DNA of 17,238 nucleotides from a virus. Lineage: Duplodnaviria > Heunggongvirae > Uroviricota > Caudoviricetes. How positions within the stretch are numbered: the first letter of the stretch is position 1; every line of letters starts with the position of its first letter. The notes below the pieces were generated by a model that was not told the origin of the DNA, ran no database searches, and saw only the letters and a program-made list of their open reading frames with translations. The stretch is from the IMG/VR virus record IMGVR_UViG_2675903661_000016; one strand, given 5' to 3'. Below are positions 279-13,250 of the stretch, in pieces. The translations under genes and the position numbers were made by a program.

Positions 279-355
279 TGGACCGCCATCGAGGACTCGA
301 ACCCCGCGCAGCCAGCTTCGAAGGCTGGCGCTCTATCCCGATGAGCTAATGGCGG
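279..355 (-). tRNA. tRNA-Arg, anticodon UCG (phage-encoded, argO-like)
   Basis: Reverse complement folds as a 77-nt cloverleaf: acceptor CCGCCAT/ATGGCGG, D-arm GCTC-ATCGGGATA-GAGC, anticodon stem CCAGC/GCTGG with loop CTTCGAA, T-arm CGGGG-TTCGAGT-CCTCG, discriminator T, encoded CCA. Position 1 is C (C1-G72). Confidence 0.75.
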
Positions 356-364
356 TATGTGATA

Positions 365-440
365 TGGTGGCCCTTGCTGGATTTGAACCAGCGACCTGGC
401 GATTATGAGTCGCTCGCTCTCACCACTGAGCTAAAGGGCC
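365..440 (-). tRNA. tRNA-Ile2-like, anticodon CAU (ileX/ileZ-like; Met cannot be excluded from sequence alone)
   Basis: Reverse complement GGCCCTTTAGCTCAGTGGTGAGAGCGAGCGACTCATAATCGCCAGGTCGCTGGTTCAAATCCAGCAAGGGCCACCA: 76 nt, acceptor GGCCCTT/AAGGGCC, anticodon loop CTCATAA, T-loop TTCAAAT, encoded CCA. Close to the recalled E. coli ileX sequence. Confidence 0.8.
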
Positions 441-5479: not shown

Positions 5480-5635
5480 TTACTTCTCAGATTCGTAGTC
5501 TACGAAGACAGCGACCTCCGTCTGGCCGGTTCGGATTCGTACCTCGCAGAGGTCTTTCCTCGTTACCAGTGCCGTCACAACAACGGTAATACAGATGACG
5601 ATCAGGGCGATTAACATCGCCTTTTGCTGCTTCAT
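5480..5635 (-). CDS. hok: Hok/Gef-family type I toxin (HokD/RelF-like small membrane toxin)
   Basis: 51-aa product MKQQKAMLIALIVICITVVVTALVTRKDLCEVRIRTGQTEVAVFVDYESEK is near-identical in pattern to recalled HokD. AAGGAG SD upstream. An in-frame upstream ATG at 5692 gives a 70-aa ORF overlapping the leader. Confidence 0.8.
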   Translation of the reverse strand: MKQQKAMLIALIVICITVVVTALVTRKDLCEVRIRTGQTEVAVFVDYESEK

Positions 5636-5689
5636 AGCCTGCTTCTCCTTGCCTTTCGGCACGTAAGAGGCTAACCTACGTTTGTGAAG

Positions 5690-5770
5690 CATAGATTGGG
5701 CCTCAGATTAATGTTAAGCGTCCTGCAAGACGCGTAATGTTAACTGGGGCTTTTCTCTGTCTGCCTTACG
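5690..5770 (+). ncRNA. Putative Sok-like antisense RNA region opposite the hok leader (boundaries not determinable by eye)
   Basis: Inferred from hok/sok family organisation: antisense RNA is encoded opposite the 5' leader and upstream-ORF start. A 9-bp inverted repeat CTGTCTGCC/GGCAGACAG (5757-5794) lies in this leader. Confidence 0.2.
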
Positions 5771-5925
5771 GCGGCATGCCCGAGGCAGACAGCCTCAAGC
5801 ACCCGCAGCAATTCTACTTAACTCTTCTTTCCCCGCAAACCGTTTTTATCCCCAGCGGCAAATCGAATACACCACCAGCGCCACCGCCATTGCAATTCCT
5901 ACCGTTATGAACGCTTCAGGCCAGG

Positions 5926-6627
5926 TCATCGTAAAATATTCTCCTCGTTTATCAGTCCGTTTCGCTTCAGGTAGTCCATCGCTTTATCCGGTAGTTTGCT
6001 TGATTTATTAACGCTTTTTAAGGAATGAGATAACCGCTTCACCCACATTGTTAATTCACTTACCTGATCGCCTGATGCTGGATTATTGTCGCTTTTTCCA
6101 GGCAATATGTGCTCTCGACTGGATTTCCAGAATATCCATGCCAAATCCACATTTGGATCCCGGTAATTCATCCCTTCGTTAGCACGAAGCAATAATGTTT
6201 CATGGTTTTTATCATCTGCATGGAACCTGATAAGTGTTTCAAACTGTTCGCGACCGTCATCAGGGATTACCTGAGAGTTACCCGTTAGCACATTCTGCTC
6301 CAGTGATGCTTTTACAAACCAGGCGGCCTGGACTATAACCCCATGGATCCAGCGCAAATCAGCATCGAGATCCTTCTTCTTCATCTTTTCGCCACTTAAA
6401 GCCTTGCTTATGTGGCTGCGCACCAGGTCTTCATGTAACTCCTTCGCCTCCTCAATGGTGAAACCGCCAGGCAAACGCCCCGGAGTTACCGGAGGGTTGC
6501 CAGCCTTGCGCATGGCAATCTCCATGATTTCAACCATATCTCCTGGTGGAATTTTACAATGCTGACCAATATGCCTCTGCTGCCCGGCATATTCGAGGAT
6601 GTGCTCCAGTTTGATACGATTAATCAT
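5926..6627 (-). CDS. Hypothetical 233-aa protein, second gene of an overlapping two-gene cargo module
   Basis: ATG 6627 overlaps the stop of the upstream gene (ATGA), with GGAG SD. Soluble, charged protein with no motif I can assign. Confidence 0.55.
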   Translation of the reverse strand: MINRIKLEHILEYAGQQRHIGQHCKIPPGDMVEIMEIAMRKAGNPPVTPGRLPGGFTIEEAKELHEDLVRSHISKALSGEKMKKKDLDADLRWIHGVIVQAAWFVKASLEQNVLTGNSQVIPDDGREQFETLIRFHADDKNHETLLLRANEGMNYRDPNVDLAWIFWKSSREHILPGKSDNNPASGDQVSELTMWVKRLSHSLKSVNKSSKLPDKAMDYLKRNGLINEENILR

Positions 6628-10851: not shown

Positions 10852-11271
10852 ATGGTTCATGAAGATGAAGCGCGTAAAGAGTTCGCCAGCAGGCTTGCGC
10901 TAGCCTGTGAAAATGCTGGCTTTGAACAACACGGAAGGCAGGCAGAAATTGCCCGTCGAATGAAGCTAACACCCAAAGCGGTTAGTAAATGGTTTAATGG
11001 AGAGGCAATTCCCCGTCGAGAGAAACTGAAAGAATTGGCAGCACTTATCGGAACAACACCAACTTACCTTCTGGGGGAGGACACTGAAGAAAGCGGAAGC
11101 CTGCGTTTCTATCAGGAGTTAAGTCCGAAGCAAAAAATCATCATTGAACTTCTTGATGAACTCCCTGACAGTGAAACTGATGAACTTTTAAAAACTCTTG
11201 AGGAGAAAAAACAGAAGTACAACGCAATTTATGAAGAATTAGCGCGAAAGAAAAAACAAAAAGCCTCCTGA
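10852..11271 (+). CDS. DicA-like prophage repressor (XRE-family HTH, no peptidase domain)
   Basis: 139 aa; HTH GRQAEIARRMKLTPKAVSKWFNG; C-terminal LSPKQKIIIELLDELPDSETDELL parallels recalled DicA (LSPKELELLELFNALPESEQD). No SD before the ATG, consistent with a leaderless transcript. Confidence 0.75.
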   Translation: MVHEDEARKEFASRLALACENAGFEQHGRQAEIARRMKLTPKAVSKWFNGEAIPRREKLKELAALIGTTPTYLLGEDTEESGSLRFYQELSPKQKIIIELLDELPDSETDELLKTLEEKKQKYNAIYEELARKKKQKAS

Positions 11272-11362: not shown

Positions 11363-11391
11363 TTTACATTAATGAACAGCAGGTACATTAT
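11363..11391 (+). promoter_or_regulatory. Putative early (pL-like) promoter/operator for the ydfA-dicF-dicB-like operon
   Basis: TTTACA (11363-11368), 17-nt spacer, CATTAT (11386-11391); flanked by GTACATT/AGTACT motifs also present in the switch region. Confidence 0.3.
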
Positions 11392-11566: not shown

Positions 11567-11719
11567 ATGGATACGCTCAATCTTGGCAACAACGAATCTC
11601 TGGTATGCGGAGTATTCCCCAACCAGGACGGCACGTTTACCGCGATGACGTATACCAGAAGCAAAACGTTTAAAACTGAAGCTGGCGCGCGTCGCTGGTT
11701 AGCAAGAAACTCTGACTAA
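11567..11719 (+). CDS. Small 50-aa protein, YdfA-like (first gene of the early operon)
   Basis: Not in the ORF track (below size cutoff). ATG 11567 with GAGG SD about 10 nt upstream; product MDTLNLGNNESLVCGVFPNQDGTFTAMTYTRSKTFKTEAGARRWLARNSD. Same size and position as ydfA in Qin. Confidence 0.45.
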   Translation: MDTLNLGNNESLVCGVFPNQDGTFTAMTYTRSKTFKTEAGARRWLARNSD

Positions 11720-11832
11720 TGAAGTCTGGTAGTTAAGGAATCCTCCACGGGGAGAACTGGTGCACACGCGCCGGACACAAGCAAGCATCCGGCATGCTCT
11801 TTAACAATCTGGATATCCATAACAGTAACAAT

Positions 11833-12324
11833 CTACAGATTGCCGTTCAGTTTTCTGGCCAACTCCTCAATAGATGGAGGCGATACATAATCCGGATTTT
11901 TATTCATAAGAAACTGATTTTCACAGTAGAGGCACCTGCTTTTATGAAAAAACTCATGTTCTCTAACCGGGAATGGTTGAAGTATCGATACTATCTTTTG
12001 TCCAAAACATTTTGGACAAAGATGCATGATTATGCTGCCGCCGTTCACGGTTACCTCCTTCGAGTACACAAAAGTTCCCGACTCAAGTTGGTTAAGGATA
12101 TAACCTTCCGTCTGAGCCTCAAAGTTTTCAAATTCTGCAATTTTAGCTTTGAGAGAAGCATTTATTTCTTGATAAGTGCTCACCAGCTCAACGAGAGACA
12201 CGCATTCGTGCTGAATAGATGCAAGCTTTGAGTTCAGTTCACCAATAGCCGCATTTACTTCAGCTTGAGTTTTTGCCTCGTTCATTAGTTTTGTAATCTG
12301 AGCGGTTTCACGAATAGCCGTCAT
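11833..12324 (-). CDS. Hypothetical coiled-coil protein with C-terminal Cys4 zinc-ribbon-like motif; antisense AT-rich moron inside the early operon
   Basis: ORF 11833..12390 (TTG); start taken at ATG 12324 (163 aa), ATG 12285 also possible. Long heptad-like helical region, then CPKC...CLYC. About 40 percent GC, markedly below neighbours. Confidence 0.5.
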   Translation of the reverse strand: MTAIRETAQITKLMNEAKTQAEVNAAIGELNSKLASIQHECVSLVELVSTYQEINASLKAKIAEFENFEAQTEGYILNQLESGTFVYSKEVTVNGGSIIMHLCPKCFGQKIVSILQPFPVREHEFFHKSRCLYCENQFLMNKNPDYVSPPSIEELARKLNGNL

Positions 12325-12660
12325 TGCTGCCGTTAATTCAGCGATCACATTCAATACTCTTATTGTTGTTGGGGATATCCAGATTAACAAGCTCCTTGTT
12401 GTTGGGGAATAACAGGTCCACCTCGCCTGACGTGGTTAAAAGCAGGCACACAACACGAAAGCGCTCGGCGAAGTTAGTCTCTCTGTATATGTCGTCGTTA
12501 AATGTAATTCGATCGTGCGCTTCCGGTTGTGGCAATCCGCGAAATGGCGCGGCGGTAAGTATGGCTGGGGCTTCCTCCATTGCTCCAGAAAATGCACCGG
12601 GTTGTCAGGTTGACCATACGCCTGAGTGACAACACCGCCACAACAACCTCTGTTATCACT

Positions 12661-12700
12661 TTTCTGGTGATTCGGCGGAAATGGATATCCGCCATTTTTA
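12661..12700 (+). ncRNA. dicF: DicF-like small RNA (compact variant) ending in an intrinsic terminator
   Basis: TTTCTGGTGATTC-GGCGGA-AATGGATA-TCCGCC-ATTTTTAAAG. The 5' decamer TTTCTGGTGA and the GGCGG/CCGCC arms plus T-tract match recalled DicF, and the downstream AAAGTGTATTTTGTGATGCGGTGAATGCGG resembles the recalled dicF-dicB spacer. The central part of DicF appears absent. Confidence 0.45.
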
Positions 12701-12876
12701 AAGTGTATTTTGTGATGCGGTGAATGCGGCTAAGCGCACGCGGAACAGTTAAAACAAGCGGTCTTTTACTGGCGTAACAGACATCAACTAACAATCCGGC
12801 GTTAATTGTTAACTGGTTAACGTCACCTGGAGGCACCAGGCACCACATCACAAAATTCATTGTTGAGGACGCGATA

Positions 12877-13065
12877 ATGGAAACGTCACTACCAAACGTT
12901 AATACGTCTGAAGGGTGTTTTAATATTGGTATTCTGCTCAGTAACCGGGAGTTTACTGAGGACGCCATCAGGATGAGAAAATATGAGCCTTATCTTCTCA
13001 ATGATAATTCCATACTCTCCAGAATTGCCCTTCTTGAACTTGGCATTTTCGGAGGGCAGCAGTGA
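12877..13065 (+). CDS. dicB: DicB-like cell-division inhibitor (62 aa)
   Basis: GAGGA SD before ATG 12877. Product METSLPNVNTSEGCFNIGILLSNREFTEDAIRMRK... versus recalled DicB MKTLLPNVNTSEGCFEIGVTISNPVFTEDAINKRK...; same length and position after dicF. Confidence 0.55.
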   Translation: METSLPNVNTSEGCFNIGILLSNREFTEDAIRMRKYEPYLLNDNSILSRIALLELGIFGGQQ

Positions 13066-13250
13066 CTTCTGCATTTGCACTGGTAATGACGGTTTTTCTT
13101 ATAACGGGTGAGCCACAGAATGTGATTACCGGAATTTATGCCAGTAAAGAATCCTGCCATCAGGCAAGAGACGAGCAAAAAATTTCCGGTGAATGTCTCC
13201 CGTTAAACAAAGTATCGCTGTACCTGAATAACGAAATACCGGCTGGATAA
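13062..13250 (+). CDS. YdfD-like small protein with N-terminal hydrophobic segment (putative lysis/membrane protein)
   Basis: GTG 13062 with GGAGGG SD, overlapping the dicB-like stop (GTGA). N-terminal AFALVMTVFLITG is hydrophobic. Position and size match ydfD. Confidence 0.45.
   Translation: MTSAFALVMTVFLITGEPQNVITGIYASKESCHQARDEQKISGECLPLNKVSLYLNNEIPAG

Follow-up and report, generated by a model that had tools for sequence, protein, structure and literature searches.

The locus examined here raises the question of whether a hairpin element clearly shorter than the textbook prophage small RNA DicF, yet lying at the dicF position, can still do what DicF does. DicF is Hfq-dependent and toxic on over-production; its 3' region pairs with the ribosome-binding site of ftsZ and its 5' end with xylR (PMC5069750). 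It is released from an operon transcript by early Rho-independent termination and by RNase E cleavage at its 5' end; RNase III also processes the full-length RNA to a form of 72 nt (PMC9438474). The element occupies positions 12661-12699 of the plus strand in a viral stretch of 17,238 nt (the window). A prophage with 100% identity to the whole window, and with the same annotated genes, is found in several STEC chromosomes. An initial annotation had taken the element for a compact DicF-like sRNA without the central segment. Our analysis makes it rather likely that the element is a short dicF allele of which little more than an intrinsic terminator, or 3'-end former, is left and which cannot target ftsZ.

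The dicF locus and its short element

Judged by alignment and gene content, the locus is the dicF position of a lambdoid STEC prophage, within its early-left operon of the dicBF type. Its flanks match the Qin dicF locus of E. coli K-12 almost base for base over about 130 nt upstream, about 60 nt downstream and the last 90 nt or so before dicB, and the difference between the two loci is confined to the DicF body. By the K-12 alignment, RefSeq and Pfam, the element has the ydfA-side genes on one side, dicB on the other, and flanks homologous to those in K-12. On the upstream side a DicA-like HTH repressor gene (10852-11271, plus strand; Pfam, RefSeq) is followed by a promoter-like site, TTTACA-17-CATTAT (11363-11391, plus strand; consensus match only), which is a candidate for the operon promoter, and then by a ydfA-like gene (DUF1391; 11567-11719, plus strand; Pfam, RefSeq), the first of the operon. 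On the downstream side dicB (12877-13065, plus strand) encodes a cell-division inhibitor of 62 aa and starts 177 nt after the element. RefSeq annotates it as dicB and it scores 115.7 bits against Pfam PF05358 (cut-off 27), so the initial annotation was right to place the element at the dicF position, and the dicB-like gene that it had recognized downstream is a genuine dicB. The next gene in the operon is ydfD-like (DUF1482; 13062-13250, plus strand; Pfam, RefSeq).

About 900 nt on the upstream side (11794-12629) hold overlapping ORFs on both strands with no Pfam match, where K-12 has ydfB and ydfC. RefSeq annotates a hypothetical protein on the minus strand there (11833-12348), in antisense orientation to the operon transcript in which the element would lie. 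A further antisense ORF, at 12498-12968, was rejected as spurious: it has no Pfam match, its extent is not kept in K-12 and it is unannotated. Elsewhere in the window there is a hok/sok-type toxin-antitoxin RNA locus on the minus strand (5630-5804; Rfam sok RF01794, 117.7 bits), along with a 70-aa mok/hok-type ORF at 5480-5692 (minus strand). Prophage tRNA genes lie at 279-440 (minus strand), namely a tRNA-Arg (tcg; 279-355) and a CAT-anticodon tRNA (365-440) that is Met according to ARAGORN and whose equivalent in Sakai prophages is annotated ileZ.

Read directly from the sequence, the element is TTTCTGGTGATTC-GGCGGA-AATGGATA-TCCGCC-ATTTTT, preceded by a T at 12660, while canonical DicF is TTTCTGGTGA-CGTTT-GGCGG-TATCAGTTTTACTCCGTGACTGCTCTG-CCGCC-C (53 nt). 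Alignment and folding define a single-stranded 5' module, UUUCUGGUGAUUC (DNA TTTCTGGTGA-TTC), at 12661-12673 on the plus strand. Its decamer TTTCTGGTGA (12661-12670) is exactly identical to DicF nt 1-10, as had been noticed at the outset, and is the sole exact copy in the window; the spacer that follows is TTC (12671-12673) in the short allele versus CGTTT (CGUUU in the RNA) in K-12 DicF. The terminator scan and the fold both give a minimal hairpin, GGCGGA/AAUGGAUA/UCCGCC (12674-12693, plus strand), in which the arms GGCGGA (12674-12679) and TCCGCC (12688-12693) form 6 bp, five of them G-C, around an 8-nt loop (AATGGATA in DNA), and which stands in place of the 37-nt DicF body. An A (12694) and a U5 tract (12695-12699) make up the terminator tail (12694-12699, plus strand; sequence and terminator scan). 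The U5 tail is common to nearly all alleles at the dicF position and forms the RNA 3' end in canonical DicF. The GGCGG/CCGCC arms and the T-tract of the initial annotation can thus be read in the sequence, and the scan returned the same hairpin. When the 39-nt RNA is folded in isolation, its first 13 nt stay unpaired and the hairpin forms (-11.1 kcal/mol); the hairpin by itself has an energy of -9.6 kcal/mol.

Counted to the base after the stem, the short element has 34 nt versus 53 nt for DicF. The earlier estimate of a difference of about 17 nt had the direction right, and the amount becomes 19 nt by the K-12 alignment. The missing part had also been described as internal; this stands in so far as the ftsZ-pairing part is absent, but a simple internal deletion does not, as the spacer differs and the loop is foreign to DicF. 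A single clean deletion from canonical DicF was rejected on the ground that AATGGATA is not a subsequence of it, and no single deletion of the hairpin found in a Stx1c phage (L153) yields the short hairpin either. The short allele and the Stx1c-phage hairpin have the same 3' arm, GATATCCGCC, so the short hairpin looks like a long hairpin of that kind minus its upper part.

The element has the structure of an intrinsic terminator, with a G+C-rich stem-loop directly 5' of a U-tract on the transcribed strand. Four terminator-like sites were found in 2.6 kb versus 3.2 expected, so the hairpin alone is no better than chance. Since the hairpin and T-tract by themselves are not above chance, the significance of the element rests on its positional homology.

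That homology extends to the sequence in front of the 5' end. By alignment to K-12, the upstream context is CTGTTATCAC-T (12650-12660, plus strand), the K-12 equivalent being CTGTTATCAA-T, so UUUCUGGUGA follows a processing context that is conserved save for one base, an A to C change two bases before the 5' end. In K-12, RNase E creates the DicF 5' end after this context (PMC9438474). The form found here is invariant in 48 out of 48 short-allele contigs retrieved with the hairpin only. Just before the DicF 5' end, a CA-rich stretch, CCACAACAACC (12638-12648), includes CACAACA, the target consensus of GcvB; most short alleles have this stretch, but the E. albertii type does not.

Between the terminator and dicB there is a conserved structured leader (12700-12876, plus strand), recognized by a sub-threshold Rfam match, folding and a consensus structure. 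Its long closing helix begins directly after the U-tract. The folding z-score is -3.88 (0 of 200 shuffles as good), the match to Rfam STnc100 reaches 31.4 bits, below the gathering score of 47, and the consensus fold has 39 pairs, one only with a compensatory change. Whether dicB or kilR follows, the leader is conserved to a very high degree. A table for strain EDL933 numbers STnc100 copies up to 11 versus 4 DicF copies, with several transcribed (PMC5331693).

Family model and predicted target pairing

The DicF family in Rfam is RF00039, with a gathering threshold of 48 bits, and canonical dicF of K-12 scores 76.7 bits on it. Alignment to this covariance model had been named in the initial annotation as the test that could overturn it, and the outcome is against membership. 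RF00039 found nothing at the gathering threshold in the whole window and no match even at E<=10 in 12500-12900, and a short allele of E. albertii (L123) gave no match at E<=1. Long-body alleles without the DicF seed score 35.6-63.5 bits on the same model and two of them pass the threshold, which indicates that RF00039 mainly reads the hairpin body; the short allele scores nothing for this reason. As far as the aligned flanks tell, the failed score does not undo the positional homology with dicF.

The sole Rfam family overlapping the element is AgvB (RF02702; 12630-12699, 15.2 bits, E = 2.5). In lambdoid prophages the AgvB genes lie at the PR' moron site (PMC4104026). An AgvB-like anti-GcvB RNA was rejected as a chance match: membership takes at least 56 bits, the gathering score, and a location at the PR' moron site, while the element has 15.2 bits and sits in the early-left operon.

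Target pairing was predicted with a 45-nt sliding target window and 60-100 shuffles as controls. This procedure replaced unconstrained duplex prediction, which gave meaningless huge internal loops, and it ignores accessibility and Hfq. The canonical body (nt 17-52) pairs with ftsZ at -29..+12 (-28.4 kcal/mol; 6% of shuffles as good), pykA at -28..+7 (-27.5 kcal/mol; 2%), manX at +35..+59 (-29.4 kcal/mol; 3%) and pchB at +16..+51 (-32.6 kcal/mol; 3%). The canonical 5' segment pairs with xylR at +8..+21 through 12 contiguous bp (-16.7 kcal/mol; 1%). Even for canonical DicF, the ftsZ prediction reaches only the 6% tail of the shuffles. With the same four body targets, ftsZ, pykA, manX and pchB, the short body yields -11.0 to -14.5 kcal/mol, and 39-91% of shuffles are as good. 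Its value on ftsZ is -13.4 kcal/mol, matched by 62% of shuffles, and the ftsZ complementarity of DicF is not found in it.

The initial annotation had left it conditional whether the ftsZ-pairing region falls in the missing part. It does in silico: the stretch that pairs with ftsZ at -29..+12 is canonical nt ~18-52, and the segment pairing with ftsZ, pykA, manX and pch is physically absent from the short allele. The 5' end is affected as well. Because GGUGACGUUUG, which pairs with xylR at +8..+21 in DicF, is changed to GGUGAUUCG, the short allele loses this site, and only a weak alternative at xylR -21..-7 is left (-12.7 kcal/mol; 6% of shuffles as good). Positions 11-13 vary even among canonical alleles (CGT, CAT, CTT); what stays constant in the seed is the decamer. 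The suggestion of a different or reduced target set thus holds for the predicted loss of ftsZ and was too narrow in scope: pykA, manX and pch are also lost and the xylR seed is changed, so that the predicted loss of pairing is broader than ftsZ alone. The short allele fails the sequence-structure model of the family and, by these predictions, is without its defining antisense function. It is best described, on the modeled fold and pairing, as a minimal terminator allele with the DicF 5' module retained.

Distribution and modular make-up of the dicF position

A 50-nt query at a minimum of 96% identity (>=96%) found the short allele at 485 places in 431 of 5426 complete E. coli genomes; the canonical allele, searched with a 69-nt query, is present at 6402 places in 3969 of the 5426. 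Many O157:H7 strains carry the short allele, which reads ...CCGCCC there; O157:H7 FRIK944 and STEC S19-141 are two of its carriers. It occurs behind three repressor types, DicA-like as in the window, LexA-family in O157:H7 and RacR-like in a mouse isolate. E. albertii carries it too, as do 48 IMG/VR contigs. The phage genomes of INPHARED contain no copy, and all those found are in prophages or IMG/VR contigs. Nor was the allele located in the four O157 Sakai regions examined (prophages Sp10, Sp11, Sp12), where Sp11 (2201580) and Sp12 (2250806) have canonical dicF and Sp10 is Rac-like. The two canonical copies in Sakai (L235, 21581-21642, Sp11; L149, 15807-15868, Sp12) have no ncRNA feature in RefSeq.

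Within the short class the 5' module TTTTCTGGTGATTC is invariant, including in the 48 viral contigs found by the hairpin alone. Among the stem variants, GGTGG and CCGCT remain paired via G-U, and GGCAG (L090) breaks one pair. Diversity in the short class is very low, and conservation there may reflect recent spread and not selection.

RefSeq leaves both canonical and short alleles unannotated in most genomes, so a missing ncRNA annotation is uninformative. At the >99% identity required in the published survey of dicF copies (PMC5069750), the short allele would have been missed, and reviews quote four dicF copies in EHEC. In the literature searched, no description of a short dicF allele was found. 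From its sequence and position, we take the element to be a genuine, unrecognized allele of the dicF locus, in which the DicF 5' module is joined to the smallest hairpin body.

For comparison of alleles, loci were collected in three ways: by the decamer plus the downstream flank, by the downstream flank alone, and by the short hairpin alone. Homologous places in total numbered 11,903. The alignments indicate that the dicF position is modular, with 5' modules and hairpin bodies that combine variously. Among the 5' modules are the DicF type, CTCTGTTATCA-N-TTTTCTGGTGA, and several others unrelated to it, such as ATTGCTGTGTGTAGTC in phages of the Rac type. Every hairpin body has the stem base GGCGG/CCGCC or a covarying version of it, followed by a T5-6 tract. 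The bodies are canonical DicF, a '63-type' (GGCGGCATCTGTTTGCCCATGAACTGATGTCCGCC), a Rac type (GGCGGCATCAGTTTTTTCTTGAAGTTCGGCTGATGTCCGCC), a Stx1c-phage type (GGCGGATATCAGTTTAATTGCTGGCTGATATCCGCC), a GGCGGGTATCC...GATACCCGCC type and the short body. In a sample partly biased towards the DicF seed, this seed was combined with the DicF body at 108 loci, with the short body at 44 and with another body at one, while loci without the DicF seed had the DicF body in five cases and other bodies in 34. Downstream of all alleles the same leader of about 170 nt (AAAGTGNATTTTGTGATGNGGTGAATGCGG...) leads to a gene for a division inhibitor, either dicB or kilR. Canonical and short elements can precede the same DicB protein alleles.

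The stem base covaries (GGTGG/CCACC; C-G versus A-T or T-A beside the stem base; GGCGGG.../...CCCGCC), and the feature common to the alleles is a hairpin followed by a U-tract, the structure of an intrinsic terminator. The terminator role that had been raised as a possibility is compatible with every allele seen at the position. The short body is the weakest hairpin type among them, with -9.6 kcal/mol and 6 pairs versus -11.5 to -23.3 kcal/mol and 11-17 pairs in the others; the only hairpins that score below it are two copies of the short hairpin with a mutated stem.

Some other combinations were seen in the collection. Five alleles (L158, 4747-4798; L188, 6225-6276; L163, L195 and L196) have a DicF-type body with an intact ftsZ-complementary segment behind a non-DicF 5' module. 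They are without the UUUCUGGUGA seed, and three of them have the compensatory pair GGTGG/CCACC. Two such seedless DicF-body alleles pass the RF00039 threshold, at 61.1 and 63.5 bits. The '63-type', found at L009 (1559-1621), L110 and L129 (E. albertii), has the DicF 5' module before another long hairpin, similar to that of the 75/02-Stx phage; with 43.5 bits this allele narrowly misses the DicF threshold, and its predicted ftsZ pairing is no better than shuffles. Stx2c phages, seen in Stx2c_PV98-693 (L155, 1550-1610), keep the upstream flank and then have another hairpin, GGCGGTACCAGTTTGTACACTTGCTTCCGGCTGGTACCGCT, with a T-tract; unrelated sequence follows, with no leader and no dicB.

Proposed role and comparison with known systems

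We suggest that the element probably acts mainly as a weak transcription stop before dicB. When the operon is transcribed from its promoter, the hairpin with its U5 tract would work as a relatively leaky intrinsic terminator, at which the ydfA-side transcript ends and which controls how much transcription continues into the leader and dicB. A fraction of the operon transcripts would be terminated, probably less efficiently than at the longer hairpins; a 6-bp stem, an 8-nt loop and five U make a modest terminator by structure, and it could be largely read through. Any RNA released by termination together with RNase E cleavage at the conserved site would have about 34-39 nt. The consensus for RNase E has a purine at -2, and the C in place of A at -2 of the presumed site could reduce cleavage. 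Any short RNA so released should be unable to repress ftsZ, and division inhibition in short-allele prophages would for that reason rest on DicB alone.

An explanation closer to the initial annotation is that the element encodes a functional compact Hfq-dependent sRNA of about 37 nt, with UUUCUGGUGA(UUC) as its seed and reduced or different targets, uncoupled from ftsZ. We consider this possible but unlikely. The architecture is that of a minimal sRNA (free 13-nt 5' end, terminator hairpin and U-tail) and working prophage sRNAs of 51-60 nt are known (PMC4104026), but the tail has five U only. The upstream processing context is conserved, with the A to C change at -2 of the presumed RNase E site counting against it. 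All tested DicF interactions, validated or predicted, are lost, and what can be set against this loss is the weak alternative xylR site at -21..-7 (-12.7 kcal/mol, 6% of shuffles). The invariance of the seed in the 48 contigs retrieved by the hairpin alone is a further point in its favor, and the invariant decamer, tightly linked to the short hairpin, could mean continued use of the seed; the class has too little diversity to show selection on it.

The short allele provides evidence for the dicF position as a recombining two-module cassette. A wider proposal, which we hold to be quite improbable, is that seed and body are exchanged independently among lambdoid prophages and that the short allele is in addition a working Hfq sRNA of about 37 nt with the UUUCUGGUGA seed only. 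If this were true, about 8% of E. coli strains, including O157:H7 lineages, would have a DicF-type regulator of non-division targets, free of the toxicity of ftsZ repression.

It is very doubtful that the element is a decayed, functionless dicF remnant, its internal loss being either tolerated or favored by DicF toxicity. Such decay would fit the weakest hairpin type at the position, the missing Rfam match and the GGCAG variant (L090) that breaks a stem pair, and since DicF over-expression is toxic (PMC5069750), loss of dicF could be advantageous in multi-copy strains. Yet 47 of the 48 viral contigs have retained the stem base and U5, as has E. albertii, and both features persist across several immunity contexts; two of the three stem variants still pair through G-U. 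The presence of a hairpin and U-tract in every allele at the dicF position argues that the terminator itself is needed. Hardly credible is a longer precursor RNA whose CA-rich CCACAACAACC (12638-12648) sponges GcvB in the manner of the AgvB anti-sRNAs: the weak RF02702 match over 12630-12699 and the GcvB target consensus CACAACA in the motif (PMC4104026) are outweighed by a score of 15.2 bits versus a gathering score of 56 (E = 2.5), by the location of AgvB genes at the PR' moron site and not in the early-left operon (PMC4104026), by the position of the CA motif upstream of the DicF 5' processing site, and by the E. albertii-type short alleles, which are without it.

The element has several implications. 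Copies of dicF are being missed, as surveys at >99% identity or with Rfam are blind to the short allele in 431 of 5426 E. coli genomes. Conversely, since alleles with a DicF body and no DicF seed pass the Rfam threshold, the annotation 'DicF' is no guarantee of the same targets. The short allele would be a natural separation-of-function allele, with the decamer and terminator kept and the antisense body gone, and thus a ready control for splitting DicF phenotypes between body and seed; it could also be used to ask how strongly an upstream terminator limits the expression of toxic dicB.

Compared with DicF of K-12 Qin (RF00039, 53 nt), the short allele shares the locus, the near-identical flanks, the first 10 nt, the GGCGG/CCGCC stem base, the U5 tail, the downstream leader and dicB. 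It differs in being 19 nt shorter, without the whole upper hairpin that is complementary to ftsZ, pykA, manX and pch; in the spacer, UUC instead of CGUUU, which removes the 12-bp xylR pairing; and in having no covariance-model match. The hairpins before kilR in Rac-type, Stx1c and 75/02-Stx phages have the same GGCGG...CCGCC, U-tract and conserved leader, and the Stx1c-phage hairpin also the same 3' arm. Unlike the short allele, however, they have stems of 13-17 bp (-18 to -23 kcal/mol), another 5' module without the DicF decamer, and 35-41 bits on the DicF model. The engineered variants DicF9 and DicF21 (Balasubramanian et al., 2016) resemble the predicted behavior of the short allele, as they have an intact 5' end, do not repress ftsZ and are non-toxic (PMC5069750). 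They are point substitutions in a full-length RNA and still repress xylR (PMC5069750), whereas the short allele is without the body and its predicted xylR pairing is also lost. The anti-sRNAs AgvB and AsxR (51-60 nt) are likewise very short and prophage-encoded and consist of a variable 5' end and a terminator (PMC4104026), but they sit at the PR' moron site with promoters of their own, and their sequence is unrelated, the AgvB model giving the 15.2 bits noted above.
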